DNA from: a virus
Reading direction: 5' to 3' (one strand)
IMG/VR virus record: IMGVR_UViG_3300045988_035187
DNA length: 43,040 nucleotides
In this document: positions 1 to 43,040 of the stretch, piece after piece
Layout of the letters: each line of letters begins with the position of its first letter
How positions within the stretch are numbered: position 1 is the first letter of the stretch
Notes under the pieces: generated by a model
The model's input: the letters and a program-made list of their open reading frames with translations, nothing else
What the model was told of the DNA's origin: nothing
The model's database searches: none
Made by a program: the position numbers and the translations under genes

Positions 1-150
1 GCCCCGAACAGGTTGGCCCTGGACAGGTTGGCCCCGAACAGGTTGGCCCCGGACAGGTTGGCCCCGGACAGGTTGGCCCCGGACAGGTTGGCCCTGGACA
101 GGTTGGCCCCGGACAGGTTGGCCCTGGACAGGTTGGCCCCGAACAGGTCG
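1..150. repeat. 15-bp tandem repeat, 10 units (gccc[c/t]g[a/g]acaggt[t/c]g)
   Basis: Direct reading: three unit variants plus one terminal variant. On the minus strand each unit encodes one A-N-L-x-x pentapeptide. Confidence 0.95.
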
Positions 151-227
151 GCCCGTTTTCCGCCATTTTCGCCTCGTATCCATTTAAGGTGCTTGTCCAA
201 AATATTTTTCAACTCTTGTTTGTCCAT
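1..227 (-). CDS. Pentapeptide-repeat protein, 5' part (continues at 43040..42569 on the circle)
   Basis: ATG at 227 preceded by AAGGAGGAAT. Reads [30 protein letters not shown] then [15 protein letters not shown] repeats. No stop before position 1. Confidence 0.85.
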
Positions 228-1549: not shown

Positions 1550-1723
1550 ACTAGAAAAAACTTGACGAACTTTAGAAAATAGTCTATTATTGTTTTGTCA
1601 GGATAAATAGCTATTTCAAAAGCCCTAGTTAATGGAGGGCTAGGTTTTTTGTGCCCTCTGTACCTCTTATAATACTAGAAAAATTTCTATCTGTCAAGAT
1701 ATTTTTCTAGTTATTTTTCTAGT
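1550..1723. promoter_or_regulatory. Immunity switch: face-to-face promoters plus 10-bp operators ACTAGAAAAA
   Basis: Rightward TTGACG(1562)-17-TATTAT(1585). Leftward TTGACA(1697..1692)-17-TATTAT(1674..1669). Motif ACTAGAAAAA at 1550 and 1674, inverted TTTTTCTAGT at 1702 and 1714. Confidence 0.6.
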
Positions 1724-1739: not shown

Positions 1740-2129
1740 ATGTACACGAACGAAGAGATTGTTGAAAAAATTCGTGAACTCGCAAAGAGAAAGAATACTT
1801 CTTTAACTGATATTGAAAAAAATCTTGCTTGGTCTAATGGAAGAATAGGGAAGTGGAAATACGCAAAAAAATACCCGCCAAAACAAGATTTGGAACTTGT
1901 AGCGAGAGCATTAAAAGTTTCTATCGAAACTATTACTGGAGAGAAAAAAAGAAAGCCCGCCTCCACATCTGGAGACGAGCTCGAAGAAGCCATTATTATT
2001 GGGCGAGATGGAAAGAAAATTAAACGGACTTATACAAAAGATCAAATGGATGCAATCAGAAAAGTCATTGATGTTATGCCATTTGTCAACGACGAAGAGA
2101 TATTTGATGGTTCGCTAGATGATTTTTAA
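1740..2129 (+). CDS. XRE-family HTH repressor (CI/ImmR-like), no peptidase domain
   Basis: ATG 1740 after GAGGTG. N-terminal HTH (IRELAKRKNTSLTDIEKNLAWSNGRIGKW). Divergent from the Cro-like gene. Confidence 0.8.
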   Translation: MYTNEEIVEKIRELAKRKNTSLTDIEKNLAWSNGRIGKWKYAKKYPPKQDLELVARALKVSIETITGEKKRKPASTSGDELEEAIIIGRDGKKIKRTYTKDQMDAIRKVIDVMPFVNDEEIFDGSLDDF

Positions 2130-2703
2130 TAAATGGCTCAAACTGCTTGTAGACTTTCCATTCGGTTGACGATCTAAAAAAGTAAGAATATCCACGTTCG
2201 GCCATGTATGTATCATCTAGGGCGCAAAGCCGTTGTAGCTTATCCCAACTAATATTTGCTGCCTGATAACTGATTGCACATAAATTCTCAATAGAATAGG
2301 CACTATCAACCTTCATCCCGCGCAAGACGCAAGTAGGCGCCAATAACATAGAACTGAAAAGATTTGCCTCCTTTTCTTCGGGATCGTTTTTGTTTCCTGG
2401 TTCGCGCCTGACTGCGCCTTCTATGCACGCATGGCCCAGAGCAAAGTGCCCGATTTCATGTGCAATCGTGAAATTCCGTCGTGTTAACGGTTGTTGTTGG
2501 TTATAAAAGGCAATTGATACGCCATCTGTTTGGAACAAAAAGCCATCGGCTCCAATGGTATGATGAACTAACCCAAGTTTTTGGATAATAGAATACCCCT
2601 GACTGTATGAAAAAAGGCCAATTCCAAGTCCTTTGCAAACCTTTCTCAAATCAACTGGCAATTCACAAATTCCACATTTGAGTAAGACATCCCATGCAGT
2701 CAT
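2086..2703 (-). CDS. immA: ImmA/IrrE-family zinc metallopeptidase
   Basis: HEIGH motif in FTIAHEIGHFALGH followed by EKEAN. ATG 2703 after GGGAGA. The 3' end overlaps the repressor gene by 44 nt. Confidence 0.85.
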   Translation of the reverse strand: MTAWDVLLKCGICELPVDLRKVCKGLGIGLFSYSQGYSIIQKLGLVHHTIGADGFLFQTDGVSIAFYNQQQPLTRRNFTIAHEIGHFALGHACIEGAVRREPGNKNDPEEKEANLFSSMLLAPTCVLRGMKVDSAYSIENLCAISYQAANISWDKLQRLCALDDTYMAERGYSYFFRSSTEWKVYKQFEPFIKNHLANHQISLRR

Positions 2704-2745
2704 TTTGTATTCTCCCAATATCGAACATTTGTTTTAGTGACTGTT

Positions 2746-2774
2746 AGTATAGCATCTCTTATTCTTATAATCAA
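2746..2774 (-). promoter_or_regulatory. Promoter for the immA-like gene: TTGATT-17-TATACT
   Basis: -35 at 2774..2769, -10 at 2751..2746, 17-nt spacer, read on the minus strand. Confidence 0.5.
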
Positions 2775-2857
2775 TTAGAGAAAAACGCCAATATATTTTT
2801 CCATATTTTGGTGTTGACCTACATCTTGTGGTCTAATACTGAAAGAGGGATATTTAA

Positions 2858-3190
2858 ATGACAAGAGAAGAATATTTTGCATCACCGTCCCGCCCAACCA
2901 AAATAAAGATGTGCAAAGAAACAGCAAGAGTAGATTTTTTATTCCATATCGGGCCTGATTTGGTTCCCCCTTATAAAGATGGGGACCGTCTGATGATACA
3001 GAAACAGCCAGATGTGTTTGAAGGAGAAATCGGACTTTTCCTAATTGATGGGAAACCGCATGTGAAAAAGCGCGGAAAAGACTGCCTGATTTCACTAAAC
3101 CCGTCTATTGAACCCGTTCCAATGAGTGATAACGTTCAGGGTCTAGGAAAAGTGTTGGGTGTTGTTGACCCTGAATGGATTGGAAAATAG
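2858..3190 (+). CDS. Stand-alone LexA/CI C-terminal (S24)-like domain protein lacking the catalytic Ser
   Basis: GPDLVPPYKDGDRLMI...GEIGLFLIDGKPHVKKRG aligns by eye with GDSMxPxixxGDxvlv...vKrl. The Ser position reads Asp. No HTH. Confidence 0.55.
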   Translation: MTREEYFASPSRPTKIKMCKETARVDFLFHIGPDLVPPYKDGDRLMIQKQPDVFEGEIGLFLIDGKPHVKKRGKDCLISLNPSIEPVPMSDNVQGLGKVLGVVDPEWIGK

Positions 3191-3210
3191 TTGAATACGG
3201 AGGGGATAAA

Positions 3211-3588
3211 ATGGAAAATGAGATTTTACAACCTGGGAAAAAGTTTTGTAAGCATTGCGGCCAACAGATAGATAAAGATTGCATCGTATGCCCGATTTGC
3301 GGAAAGCAAGTTGAAGATTTGAAAGCAAATCAGCAACCCGTTGTAATAAATAATACAAACACCAACACAAATACCGTTGATGTCAAAATGGAGAACAGAG
3401 GGAAAGAAAAAAACAAATGGGTAGCTTTCGTCCTCTGCCTTTTCCTTGGAGTTTTTGGCGCTCATAAATTCTATGAAGGGAAAATATTAATGGGCGTCAT
3501 TTATATCTTTACTGGTGGCTTATTATTGATCGGGTGCATTATTGATTTGATTGCAATTTTAATGAAGCCAAATCCGTACTATGTATAA
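3211..3588 (+). CDS. Zinc-ribbon + TM2-domain membrane protein
   Basis: CKHCGx12CPICG ribbon. C-terminal KNKWVAFVLCLFLGVFGAHKFYEGK is a TM2-type motif. RBS GGAGGGGA. Confidence 0.75.
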   Translation: MENEILQPGKKFCKHCGQQIDKDCIVCPICGKQVEDLKANQQPVVINNTNTNTNTVDVKMENRGKEKNKWVAFVLCLFLGVFGAHKFYEGKILMGVIYIFTGGLLLIGCIIDLIAILMKPNPYYV

Positions 3589-3643: not shown

Positions 3644-3898
3644 ATGTTAGATGAAAAAGACTTACAGGCTATTGCCCAGTTAATGGACTCTAAAATGGCC
3701 CAGCAGAAAAAAGAAATCATCAGCGAAACTATGGTACTCATGGAAGCCTACTTTGACCCCAAATTCCAAGCCCTCAGTGAGCAGATCAATCCTGTCCCTA
3801 AAGAGGCCATAGACATCTTGGAGGACCGGGTGGACGATCTGGAAAAAGCGGTGGAGTTACATACTCAGCAGATCAATGAGTTGAAGAAAGCGCAATAA
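3644..3898 (+). CDS. Coiled-coil protein, paralog A (84 aa)
   Basis: AAGGAGA RBS. Ends LHTQQINELKKAQ, shared with the next gene. Confidence 0.6.
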   Translation: MLDEKDLQAIAQLMDSKMAQQKKEIISETMVLMEAYFDPKFQALSEQINPVPKEAIDILEDRVDDLEKAVELHTQQINELKKAQ

Positions 3899-3910: not shown

Positions 3911-4177
3911 ATGACGAACGAAGAAAAGATTTTAGAATTACTGGAAGCGCAGGGAAAAAAGTTAGACACCGTATCGCAGGAAATTTCCAAAATCAATCTG
4001 ACGCTTGAAAATGAAATCCGTCCAAATATGCAGGCTATGGCTGAAAACATCTCCTCTATCAACAAGAAGTTAATTACCAGAGACGAGATTGACAGCATGA
4101 AAGAAGAAATCGCTTTCCTCAAGGATATTATCCGTATGCACACTAACCAGATTAACGATCTCAAGAAAGCCCAATAA
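3911..4177 (+). CDS. Coiled-coil protein, paralog B (88 aa)
   Basis: AAGGAG RBS. Ends MHTNQINDLKKAQ. Tandem paralog of 3644-3898. Confidence 0.6.
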   Translation: MTNEEKILELLEAQGKKLDTVSQEISKINLTLENEIRPNMQAMAENISSINKKLITRDEIDSMKEEIAFLKDIIRMHTNQINDLKKAQ

Positions 4178-4222: not shown

Positions 4223-5308
4223 GTGTCTTTTTTGAACTGCATACGTTGCAAAGCGGAGTTGCCTGAAGGGGCAGCATACTGTCCTACCTGCGGAAAGAAA
4301 CAGACTGGCACTCCCCCACGAAAAGCCCTGAAACGGGCCAATGGCACCGGAACAGTCTATAAGCTGTCCGGCCGTCGGCGCCGCCCATGGGTAGCCGCCA
4401 AGAATAAAGTAATCATCGGATACTATGAGCGTAAGACAGACGCTATAGAAGCTCTGGAAAAACTGTCTGGTCGGGACTTGTCGGAGCGGTACAACATGAC
4501 ATTTGCTGAGGTATTCGAGATATGGAAAGCGGAGCATTATCAGGAAATCGGTGAAAAGGGCGTTGAGGGATATAACCGGGCCTTTGCTGTGTTCGCCCCG
4601 CTCCACGAGAAGAAGTTCCGGGACCTGCGCACAGCAGATTTTCAGTCGGCCCTAGACCCACACATGAAAAAGTCGCACTCCACCGTGTCAAAGTACAAGC
4701 AACTGATTACGCAGATGTCCCAATGGGCTATCCGGGAGGAAATCTGCACCACCAACTTTGCCAAATTCGTCCGGCTCCCGGAAAACGTCAAAAAGGAAAA
4801 AGACATCTTTACAGATCAAGAAATCGCAAAACTGGAAGCTGATAACAGCGAAACGGCGAAAATCGTTCTCATGCTGATTTATACAGGTATGCGTATTGGA
4901 GAATTGTTCTTACTTCCTCTTGCGGACTACCACGGCACCTATGTCGTAGGTGGAGAAAAAACAGAGGCGGGGAGAAACCGCATCATCCCCATTCGGCCCG
5001 AGGGGCGTAGATGCTTTGCGTACTTCGCTCAGCAGGCAGACGGACCGCTGCTCCTGTCTGGATATACCGGACAGCACCGCCCGGAAAACTACCGAAAACG
5101 GGATTACTACCCTCTGTTGAAGAAACTGGGCATTCCGCAGAAAAACCCGCATTGCACTCGGCACACTTACGCCAGCTGGGCAAGAAAACAGGGAATGGCT
5201 CCGGAGACCTTGCAAAAAATCCTGGGCCATGCGGATTACAGTACCACAGCAAATATCTATGTGCATACAGACGCAGATGAATTGATACAGGCAGTCGAAA
5301 ATTGTTAG
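4223..5308 (+). CDS. int: Tyrosine recombinase (phage integrase) with N-terminal zinc ribbon
   Basis: TGMRIGEL, HCTRHTYAS, LGHADYSTTANIYVH supply the R..HxxR..H..Y catalytic set. CIRCx10CPTC at the N-terminus. Start is GTG 4223 or TTG 4232. Confidence 0.9.
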   Translation: MSFLNCIRCKAELPEGAAYCPTCGKKQTGTPPRKALKRANGTGTVYKLSGRRRRPWVAAKNKVIIGYYERKTDAIEALEKLSGRDLSERYNMTFAEVFEIWKAEHYQEIGEKGVEGYNRAFAVFAPLHEKKFRDLRTADFQSALDPHMKKSHSTVSKYKQLITQMSQWAIREEICTTNFAKFVRLPENVKKEKDIFTDQEIAKLEADNSETAKIVLMLIYTGMRIGELFLLPLADYHGTYVVGGEKTEAGRNRIIPIRPEGRRCFAYFAQQADGPLLLSGYTGQHRPENYRKRDYYPLLKKLGIPQKNPHCTRHTYASWARKQGMAPETLQKILGHADYSTTANIYVHTDADELIQAVENC

Positions 5309-21388: not shown

Positions 21389-21805
21389 TTATCCTCGAAG
21401 ATATCGCTTCACCGCCTTTCCAAATACTCGTTCCCATTTGCCCTTGTTTTCCGCTTTGCTCGCCTCAAACCAATGTGATTGCGCCTGCGAGTGCATAGCT
21501 TTGTTGAAAACCAAGTCTTTATCAGTGAGAACTTTTGTTGCTCCGTAAGATGCATAACTGCTGCCTGTTGCCGGGTCTATCATCAATTTGCCGTAGTATA
21601 AATAGCGAGATTGTGGGCCGGGATAGATAATCCTGGATTCCTCTACTTTTGTTCTTCGGTCGAGATTGCCCGTTAAGGCCGGAACGTATGGAGATGTATC
21701 CTTTTGTGCTTGGATAGCCATCGCATAAACAGCCTTTTTGCTTGCTGCTTCCAAATGCCCCGTCACAGTTGGAACAATATTGGAGCTGACATCAAAGCTA
21801 AACAT
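21389..21805 (-). CDS. Head-tail joining (tail completion, HK97 gp10-like) protein
   Basis: Start set to ATG 21805 (TGATG overlap). Synteny only. Confidence 0.55.
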   Translation of the reverse strand: MFSFDVSSNIVPTVTGHLEAASKKAVYAMAIQAQKDTSPYVPALTGNLDRRTKVEESRIIYPGPQSRYLYYGKLMIDPATGSSYASYGATKVLTDKDLVFNKAMHSQAQSHWFEASKAENKGKWERVFGKAVKRYLRG

Positions 21806-41981: not shown

Positions 41982-42572
41982 TCATTCTTCGCACCACCAA
42001 ATGTCCGCCGTCTGGACGCCCAAGGATAAAGCTTCTGAGTGTCCCTTGACGGCAATGTCAATATGGTCCCCCTTGACTGCCGGACCGGTATCATCGGCTC
42101 TCAGATACACCATCCCGCCGTTGTGCTCGATCATGATGGTACTGGCCAGCGGTATAATGTCCGTATCCACGGCGCAGCTCACATACGGAGTCACGCGCCG
42201 TCCGCTGGCGGTGATGCCTGTCCCAGTCCCGCAGATGTGAGGCCGTTCCTCGCAACAATAAAAGGTGATGGTGGCACCTTCCAGCTTGTGAGACCGGGCC
42301 AACAAAGCGGCTTCGATCAGCTCATTTTCGGCGGCCTCCATCTCTTCCCCTGTCAGATAACAGCGAGTGGTGGCCGGGGTATCGTCGCCGGGGAGACTGC
42401 CGTCCTCTGCGGCGGGCGCCATCTTGTGCAGGGTGGGCGGCTCTGCCTCCACTGTCATAATCAGGTAGCTTCCCAGCCACGCCAGCAGCAAGATCAGAAA
42501 CAGGAGATATGTAATCAGCTGCAACCGCCTCTGGCTCCGGCGCCGCCGCTCTTCGCGGGTCAGCTTTTTCAT
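41982..42572 (-). CDS. Membrane-anchored 3D-domain (RlpA-like double-psi barrel) protein
   Basis: N-terminal TM (LITYLLFLILLLAWLGSYLIM). C-terminal GRRVTPYVSCAVDTDIIPLAS...YLRADDTGPAVKGDHIDI matches the 3D-domain Asp pattern. Confidence 0.65.
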   Translation of the reverse strand: MKKLTREERRRRSQRRLQLITYLLFLILLLAWLGSYLIMTVEAEPPTLHKMAPAAEDGSLPGDDTPATTRCYLTGEEMEAAENELIEAALLARSHKLEGATITFYCCEERPHICGTGTGITASGRRVTPYVSCAVDTDIIPLASTIMIEHNGGMVYLRADDTGPAVKGDHIDIAVKGHSEALSLGVQTADIWWCEE

Positions 42573-43040
42573 AAGATATGCCTCACCGCTTCCTCACGGG
42601 TGATATAGAAATGGATGCCCGTGCTACACTCGTTCCAGCGGTTTTCGTCAAAATCCAGCACAGAAACTACCGTTCCGGGGATATAGGAAAAATTGCAGTC
42701 TCTATCACTGACAGCGGCCTGCTCCAATACATTCCCCTCTAAATCCTGAATCTCCAAAACGGTTGCCTTTGAGCAGCGGCACTTCCGGCCTGCTGCGGAA
42801 CTGCGCACGGCATCTTCGGTAATTTCCAGCTTTACAATGCACTCATGACCGCTGGTTTTGACCCTTGCCTTTTTCCAGCCGACAAAAGCGCCGATTTCCG
42901 GGCAGGCAATGGGATAAAATAAATTTTTTGCCTTTTCAATGTAGTTGGCCCCGAACAGGTTGGCCCCGAACAGGTTGGCCCCGAACAGGTTGGCCCCGAA
43001 CAGGTTGGCCCTGGACAGGTTGGCCCCGAACAGGTTGGCC
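42569..43040 (-). CDS. Pentapeptide-repeat protein, 3' part with a C-terminal globular domain (GIHFY motif)
   Basis: Frame is open from the window edge: ANLFG repeats, then YIEKAKNLFYPIACPE...CSTGIHFYITREEAVRHIL and a stop at 42569. In frame with 227..1 through the 48-nt overlap. Confidence 0.8.
   Translation of the reverse strand, partial: ANLFGANLSRANLFGANLFGANLFGANLFGANYIEKAKNLFYPIACPEIGAFVGWKKARVKTSGHECIVKLEITEDAVRSSAAGRKCRCSKATVLEIQDLEGNVLEQAAVSDRDCNFSYIPGTVVSVLDFDENRWNECSTGIHFYITREEAVRHIL
42948..43040. repeat. 15-bp tandem repeat, 6.2 units; same family as 1-150
   Basis: Units read AAAABA+gcc. The last 48 nt are identical to nt 1-48. Confidence 0.95.

Follow-up and report, generated by a model that had tools for sequence, protein, structure and literature searches.

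A putatively LexA-gated, convergent immA gene and an accessory S24-fold gene in the immunity region of a presumed temperate phage of gut Clostridia

ICEBs1 ImmR/ImmA, Listeria MpaR and Deinococcus DdrO/IrrE combine an XRE-type repressor that has a separate C-terminal domain with an adjacent M78/COG2856 protease, which carries a HEXXH motif and is expected to cleave the repressor. In the known repressor-protease pairs, immA lies directly downstream of the repressor gene and is autoregulated by the repressor (PMC6872733). Induction of ImmR/ImmA-type pairs is linked to DNA damage, but the path by which the RecA signal reaches ImmA-type proteases is generally unresolved (PMC12637031), and in many Gram-positive prophages and integrative and conjugative elements the route from DNA damage to such switches is a standing question. 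Here we analyze a region of related design, positions 1740-3190 of the viral DNA record IMGVR_UViG_3300045988_035187 (43,040 nucleotides, nt; “the window” below denotes this whole stretch), which encodes an XRE-type repressor, an ImmA-type metallopeptidase and an orphan S24-fold protein that we call S24L. The region resembles the systems above in its repressor-protease pair and in the predicted link of induction to DNA damage; it differs in that immA runs convergent to the repressor gene and overlaps it, has its own promoter with a LexA box, and has a terminator located within the repressor gene. Given this promoter and its box, the damage signal would enter here at immA transcription, and not (or not only) post-translationally.

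LexA-controlled antirepressors provide another point of comparison. Tum of coliphage 186, the Gifsy/Fels-type proteins and AntC of N15, all from phages of Proteobacteria, are small, non-covalent binders of the repressor. As in those phages, the repressor itself would be insensitive to activated RecA (RecA*), host LexA would repress a separate antirepressor gene, and SOS induction would be indirect; here, however, the LexA-controlled gene would encode a proteolytic, ImmA-type antirepressor in phages of Clostridia. LexA gating of immA would thereby merge the “LexA-controlled antirepressor” and “proteolytic antirepressor” paradigms. The CapH/CapP pair of the cyclic-oligonucleotide-based anti-phage signaling system (CBASS) is likewise a helix-turn-helix (HTH) repressor with an M78 protease, and it responds to DNA damage. 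CapP is also the best defence-library match of the ImmA described here (E 2e-17), but CapP controls an immune operon, and this locus lacks CBASS genes. All parts of the locus are therefore of known kinds (XRE repressor, ImmA protease, S24 fold, LexA box); their combination differs from the known protease pairs in orientation and in the predicted entry point of the signal, and from the Tum- and Gifsy-type antirepressors in its use of a protease.

We read the region as the module by which a temperate phage, presumably of Oscillospiraceae-type gut Clostridia, controls its immunity and induction, comprising a repressor, a convergent immA gene gated by LexA, and S24L as a separate accessory, and we put the probability of this reading at roughly 0.6. 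The features on which it rests are the following.

1740-2129, + strand: XRE/ImmR-like repressor of 129 amino acids (aa), with an ATG start and a GAGGTG ribosome-binding site.
2703-2086, - strand: ImmA/IrrE-type M78 metallopeptidase of 205 aa (PF06114, 47.4 bits against a cutoff of 22; phrog_1914, E 6e-33; PADLOC CapP, E 2e-17).
2774-2746, - strand: immA promoter, TTGATT-17-TATACT, with TG ahead of the -10 element.
2723-2734: Firmicutes LexA (Cheo) box, GAACATTTGTTT, 11 nt downstream of the immA -10 element, at about +5 to +16.
1982-1943, - strand: intrinsic-terminator-like hairpin for immA transcripts, with a 13-bp stem, a 4-nt loop and a U-run, antisense within the linker codons of the repressor (KKRKPASTSGDELEE).
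2858-3190, + strand: orphan S24-fold protein S24L of 110 aa (Peptidase_S24, E 4.6e-7, 30 bits against a cutoff of 23.3).

An earlier reading of the region, made from its letters without database searches (the sequence-only reading), had proposed a HEIGH metallopeptidase on the strand opposite to an HTH-only repressor, transcribed from its own promoter and overlapping the repressor gene 3'-to-3' by 44 nt. All of these elements were recovered. The protease matches the Pfam M78 family and carries the zinc-binding HEXXH motif as AHEIGH at residues 81-86, with H82, E83 and H86 invariant in 12 homologues. The promoter lies at the positions listed above, and the stop codons of the repressor (2127-2129, + strand) and of immA (2088-2086, - strand) give the 44-nt overlap.

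The arrangement is conserved well beyond the window. Among the relative loci with which the window was compared (numbered L001-L038), L015, L016, L020 and L021 hold a 129-aa HTH repressor and a 205-aa ImmA in the same convergent overlap, with ImmA 97-99% identical to that of the window. More diverged convergent pairs occur in L025 (ImmA identity 76%, overlap 44 nt), L026/27 (56%, 64 nt) and L028/29 (54%, 32 nt), as well as in a prophage of Flavonifractor plautii ATCC 29863 (L030), whose ImmA is 54% identical and whose two genes stand 330 nt apart. The canonical order, with a repressor gene followed by a co-oriented immA, was seen only in the 30%-identity relatives L022 and L023. Since both these distant relatives and the literature show the co-oriented layout, the convergent one appears to be derived. 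This agrees with the earlier suggestion that an ImmA-type protease is the partner of the repressor in an unusual orientation, and the comparison indicates that the real unit of the region is a conserved two-gene module of repressor and convergent immA.

The evidence for a damage input to this module is the LexA box at the immA promoter. Clostridial LexA operators read GAACnnnnGTTT/C, i.e. GAACnnnnGTTT/GTTC, for instance at lexA, recA and ruvC of C. difficile (PMC4234289). Every lineage whose ImmA is at least 54% identical (five, including the window) carries a box no more than 60 nt upstream of the immA start. In the diverged lineages, the box is a perfect GAAC-N4-GTTC (GAACAAATGTTC in L025, GAACGGATGTTC in L026/27, GAACACATGTTC in L028/29 and GAACATCTGTTC in L030) and is the sole match in each locus of 2.6-6.9 kb; in L026/27, L028/29 and L030 it falls exactly in the 17-nt spacer of a TTGCAA/TTGCCA-17-TATAAT promoter. 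The half-sites are constant among lineages while the N4 spacer and the flanks vary, a classical phylogenetic footprint. The window contains three matches to the motif, of which the immA box is the only intergenic one, the others lying in coding sequence at 21800 and 42664 (pentapeptide-repeat open reading frame). The co-oriented relatives L022 and L023 have no LexA box at immA. This footprint suggests that host LexA represses immA via the box and that immA would be SOS-inducible.

Two further observations concern the surroundings of this promoter. Between immA and S24L, the intergenic sequences of the window, L015, L016, L020 and L021 are 99% identical; their conservation is hence uninformative and was dropped as support. 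In L026 (2182-2215), the immA promoter is a perfect palindrome in which divergent TTGCAA-17-TATAAT promoters share one LexA box; a 70-aa gene across the palindrome would be SOS-controlled too, and a RelB/YoeB pair lies just beyond it.

The identification of the 129-aa protein as the immunity repressor follows from the switch next to it, which holds every copy of a candidate operator motif and two strong promoters, with a cro-like gene running divergently. These elements are arranged as follows.

1334-1531, - strand: Cro-like HTH protein of 65 aa (HTH_26, E 1e-8; phrog_8, E 5e-13), heading the leftward early operon, divergent from the repressor.
1532-1739: cro-repressor intergenic switch of 208 bp.
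1550-1559 (+), 1674-1683 (+), 1702-1711 (-) and 1714-1723 (-): four exact ACTAGAAAAA operator half-sites.
1562-1590 (+) and 1697-1669 (-): strong, face-to-face sigma-70-like promoters, TTGACG-17-TATTAT and TTGACA-17-TATTAT, respectively.

The four half-sites are the only exact copies of ACTAGAAAAA in the 43-kb window. The switch also holds a terminator-like hairpin at 1624-1644 (+), and its geometry of crossing promoters recalls the convergent-promoter switches of 186/P2-type phages.

In the repressor itself, Pfam and PHROG profile searches detected only an XRE-type HTH (HTH_3, E 9.5e-4, weaker than the Pfam cutoff; HTH_26, E 7.5e-3; phrog_8 “transcriptional regulator”, E 8e-10) and no peptidase or S24 domain. 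Its two parts have different histories. The conserved portion starts at 'KPASTSGDELEEAIIIGRDGKK...' and spans the linker and the C-terminal domain, while the N-terminal HTH is exchangeable among relatives: in phages with 97-99% identical ImmA, three unrelated HTH domains are joined to one constant linker and C-terminal domain ('KPASTSGDELEEAIIIGRDGKKIKRTYTKDQMDALRKVIDVMP...'). The C-terminal domain is still recognizable where the paired ImmA is only 54-56% identical. Co-conservation of this domain with ImmA, together with the swapping of the HTHs, is the pattern expected if ImmA recognizes the C-terminal domain. The linker and C-terminal domain are thus the likely ImmA target, with a predicted cleavage site within or after 'KPASTSGDELEE...'. 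The junction between exchanged HTHs (window 1740-1950 compared with L015 3874-4090 and L020 3898-4090) falls exactly at the embedded immA terminator and linker, which suggests a recombination boundary for immunity swapping.

The terminator hairpin for immA folds at -22.3 kcal/mol (z = -2.7), and a hairpin of other sequence occupies the matching place in L025, L026 and L028. Because this terminator lies inside the repressor gene, at 1982-1953, the immA mRNA would be antisense to approximately 175 nt of the repressor mRNA. For the repressor transcript, no terminator was predicted ahead of its entry into immA. Mutual transcriptional interference of the two units is plausible, and the antisense coupling that the sequence-only reading had placed in the 44-nt overlap would reach further. 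The result is a compact design, with a terminator in the repressor linker and two units transcribed towards each other.

From these elements, we propose the following course of events. The 129-aa repressor would keep the cro-side promoter off through the ACTAGAAAAA operators, and in the lysogen LexA, possibly together with read-through from the repressor promoter, would keep immA low or off. Upon DNA damage, RecA* would stimulate the self-cleavage of LexA, and immA would be transcribed from its own convergent unit. ImmA would then cut the repressor in its conserved linker or C-terminal domain, turning on the lytic genes, and immA transcription through the 3' half of the repressor gene would probably also lower repressor synthesis. 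In the least certain step, S24L would tune SOS-dependent induction by binding RecA* or the C-terminal domains of S24 repressors, whether host LexA, the CI of its own phage or that of a rival phage. For this one clade, the sequence thus proposes a simple answer to the question of how damage reaches the switch, namely LexA gating of protease transcription.

The third protein of the region, S24L, has the S24 fold that had been suspected for 2858-3190. Beyond the Pfam match, its AlphaFold2 model (12 homologues) reaches a pLDDT of 90.8, and the top PDB matches of this model in Foldseek are the LexA C-terminal domain, UmuD' and the lambda CI C-terminal domain (TM-score ~0.6, probability 1.0), with CI repressors matched in BFVD. 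PADLOC and NCBIfam returned nothing for S24L beyond weak LexA similarity, and the protein contains no DNA-binding domain. Aligned with the C-terminal domain of M. tuberculosis LexA, it reads 'hIGPDLvp' over 'vIGDSMve' and HVK over TVK, so that Asp34 stands where LexA has its Ser, and K70 where LexA has its Lys.

The S24L family consists of standalone proteins of 109-121 aa with 50-98% identity and 20 invariant residues. An exhaustive profile search of 1.8 billion representatives added only one further standalone S24L-type cluster at E < 1e-30. The next-nearest proteins are HTH+S24 repressors, mostly of ~250 aa, which carry a canonical GDSMEP and, some 33 residues ahead of 'ADF', an ASAGTG cleavage site. 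In S24L, the corresponding 'DF' stands at residues 26-27 and no Ala-Gly or Cys-Gly self-cleavage site is present; from the position of 'DF', the protein starts just past the self-cleavage point of the repressors, like a free post-cleavage C-terminal domain. S24L probably derives from the C-terminal domain of ~250-aa CI repressors, with loss of the HTH, the Ala-Gly site and the strict GDSM.

The active site is relaxed across the family. GDSM occurs in no member, the motif being [GDE][PDEA][DST]L, and relatives read RIDESL, VDDSL or ADETL at the Ser position, with K70 invariant. The nucleophile position holds Asp in the window, L012, L014, L015 and L016, Ser in L009, L013 and L017-L021, and Thr in the [Clostridium] leptum group. 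Loss of the Ser with retention of the Lys, as the sequence-only reading had it, thus stands for the window protein but does not extend to the family, in which close relatives keep Ser or Thr.

Selection on S24L is strong. The ratio of nonsynonymous to synonymous rates (dN/dS) lies at 0.05-0.25 in every comparison and in both halves of the gene, including the Asp allele (window against L016: dS 0.51, dN 0.044; ratio ~0.1), which marks S24L as a functional gene and not a relic. Since the active-site motif is relaxed while constraint elsewhere is strong, a non-catalytic role is argued, and S24L most likely acts by binding rather than by catalysis. The gene is also internally mosaic: between two N-terminal alleles, HIGPDL and RIDESL (codons 1-46, 2858-3000), dS is saturated at 1.3-2.5, whereas the rest of the gene is nearly identical (dS 0.1-0.3) and the flanks are near-identical.

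S24L was found in 7 viral contigs and in no fewer than 24 others, and 252 collection blocks index its closest diverged relative; a first scan of genome contigs with the S24L profile gave no match. The contexts of the gene are of three kinds. It lies directly downstream of a full-length CI (HTH+S24) where ImmA is absent, namely in eight [Clostridium] leptum-type prophage loci (L001-L008) and in L012; downstream of a different, co-oriented ImmA of 141-147 aa in L009, L013, L014 and L017-19; and beside the convergent 205-aa ImmA in the window, L015, L016, L020 and L021. In all of these, it shares a strand with the integrase gene and flanks the immunity genes on the side that faces the integrase. 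Both alleles are found with either ImmA-module type, the Asp allele also after CI (L012), and the convergent repressor/ImmA pairs of L025-L030 have no S24L nearby. This distribution indicates that S24L is a separately mobile accessory gene of the integrase-proximal lysogeny block, outside the two-gene unit. Ahead of S24L, the window shares only a leader of ~55 nt with L014 and L019.

Compared with known S24 proteins, S24L shares the beta-fold and the conserved Lys of LexA, lambda CI and UmuD, and in length and start it is UmuD'-like; phage P1 HumD is a pre-truncated S24 form of this type. It differs from LexA, CI and UmuD in having no DNA-binding domain, Ala-Gly site or GDSM and in its place in a lysogeny module, downstream of repressors. 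No Y-family polymerase partner was seen near S24L, although no search for one was made. A functional precedent is the small phage protein gp7 of GIL01, which attaches to host LexA and prevents its RecA-mediated autocleavage (PMC4551915). It sets an example for a small, lysogeny-expressed tuner of the LexA/RecA* signal without DNA binding of its own, but it has no sequence or fold kinship with S24L, for which contact with LexA is hypothetical. S24L is a clean, selected case in which lysogeny modules retain a protease fold that lacks its catalytic motif, and a candidate modulator of RecA*, LexA or CI signalling.

Several points weigh against the reading of a LexA-gated convergent module with an S24L accessory. 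The box in the window has one imperfect half-site (GTTT), and the motif is not enriched there (3 found against 2.5 expected), so that the case for the box comes from where it lies and from its conservation among lineages. More remote convergent immA genes (35-40% identity; L031-34 and L038) are without a Cheo box; LexA control would accordingly be specific to the clade, and convergence alone is no sign of it. With regard to S24L, no convincing sigma-A promoter was found for it in the window. By manual mapping, its F27, F/V29 and L60 align with the LexA pocket residues F111, L113 and V146, but engagement of this pocket by RecA F203 needs V79/V82 of LexA (bioRxiv 10.1101/2023.10.30.564768). The segment that holds these two residues is missing from S24L, and RecA* docking is consequently not a given.

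One alternative concerns the box itself, since GAAC-N4-GTTC at the immA promoter might not be a LexA operator: a regulator encoded by the phage could bind there, or the palindrome could be a structural feature of a promoter that works in both directions. The element in L026 does stand at the center of a perfectly symmetrical divergent TTGCAA-17-TATAAT pair, and the absence of the element from the more distant convergent immA genes fits this view as well. Yet the conserved bases are exactly the Firmicutes/Clostridial LexA half-sites (PMC4234289), with spacer and flanks varying in five lineages, phages that share one and the same immA promoter have exchanged the DNA-binding domains of their immunity repressors, and the ACTAGAAAAA operator motif is absent from the immA and S24L promoter regions; we consider this alternative unlikely. 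The sequence-only reading had gone in another direction and made S24L an obligate third component, which senses RecA* or oligomerizes and signals to ImmA, which in turn cuts the HTH-only repressor. Such a system would draw on a fold that docks on RecA*, on the adjacency of S24L to immA in the window, L015, L016, L020 and L021 and its position directly after a different ImmA in L009, L013 and L017-18, and on the gap in knowledge of the RecA-to-ImmA route noted at the outset (PMC12637031). The role of obligate partner or ImmA adaptor does not survive the comparison of loci: S24L also follows CI directly where there is no ImmA (L001-8, L012), the convergent module exists without S24L in L025-L030, S24L alleles combine freely with ImmA-module types, and the LexA box already gives immA a damage input. 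An obligate three-part system is hence quite improbable.

The variation at the nucleophile position allows a different view of S24L, in which the Ser-bearing alleles would be active S24 proteases that act in trans on a rival CI or host LexA, with the Asp allele of the window inactive or dominant-negative. The C-terminal domains of LexA and lambda CI can cleave substrates in trans in vitro, many S24L relatives keep the Ser (RIDESL, VDDSL), and Lys70 is invariant. However, GDSM is missing from every member, and all Ser/Thr alleles have Asp or Glu in place of the Gly that stands two residues ahead of the nucleophile. S, T and D are all accepted at the nucleophile position, against strong purifying selection on the remainder of the protein, and the Asp allele is itself conserved at dN/dS ~0.1, which leaves little probability for trans-acting proteolysis. 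Least of all do we expect S24L to be a decaying, functionless CI remnant that lost its 5' half in module exchange. It does amount to the C-terminal domain of a CI that lacks both HTH and cleavage site, and in the window the catalytic Ser as well, but it is an intact frame of 109-121 aa with its own start and ribosome-binding site, kept over 50-98% identity with 20 invariant residues; a pseudogene was ruled out by the dN/dS of 0.05-0.25 together with the conserved boundaries of the open reading frame.

Returning to the reading of a LexA-gated convergent immA with S24L as an accessory, its fullest form would join both halves in one proposal. A LexA-controlled immA would have moved out of the repressor operon, enabling the SOS response both to cut the repressor and to jam its transcription, and S24L would be a portable, SOS-tuning pseudo-protease that travels with three repressor architectures, docks on RecA* or on S24-repressor C-terminal domains, and sets the induction threshold or hinders competitors. 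We offer this joint proposal tentatively and regard it, taken as a whole, as rather doubtful. In the open-access literature, no description was found of a standalone S24 lysogeny protein or of a COG2856 protease controlled by a LexA box. Similarly, the annotated phage collection contained no close relative of the region, only a single unannotated match of 246 bp, and the tblastn matches were all full-length CI repressors.

The ends of the window (1-154 and 42944-43040) form a single 15-bp tandem array, and joining the end to the start (42572-43040 plus 1-230, - strand) yields a 233-aa pentapeptide-repeat protein. Because both the array and the open reading frame close upon joining, the window is a circularly permuted complete phage genome, cut within the pentapeptide-repeat gene. 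Such phages are common in human gut metagenomes, with Oscillospiraceae/Flavonifractor-type hosts, and for this reason their induction logic bears on the mobilization of gut prophages by antibiotics and genotoxins.

Downstream of S24L, the lysogeny block continues to the integrase with these genes.

3175-3588, + strand: membrane protein of 137 aa with a zinc ribbon and a TM2 domain (TM2, E 5.5e-18), overlapping the S24L stop by 16 nt.
4223-5308, + strand: tyrosine integrase of 361 aa with an N-terminal zinc ribbon (Phage_integrase, E 3.5e-14; phrog_1, E 6e-49), which ends the S24L-bearing lysogeny block.

The TM2 gene is a frequent, not obligate, neighbor of S24L. Its product is reminiscent of the “zinc proteins associated with lysogeny” of pneumococcal prophages, and both the TM2 protein and the integrase start with a CxxC...CxxC zinc ribbon. 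In L013 (1704-2945), a protein with a SNIPE/T5orf172 nuclease domain is encoded between S24L and the TM2 gene, which shows that this slot accepts cargo genes. Between the TM2 gene and the integrase, the window carries tandem paralogous coiled-coil proteins of 84 and 88 aa (3644-3898 and 3911-4177; phrog_33872), which are ~34% identical. The copy number of these paralogues varies among relatives, and the lysogeny block often carries the TM2 protein together with both of them.

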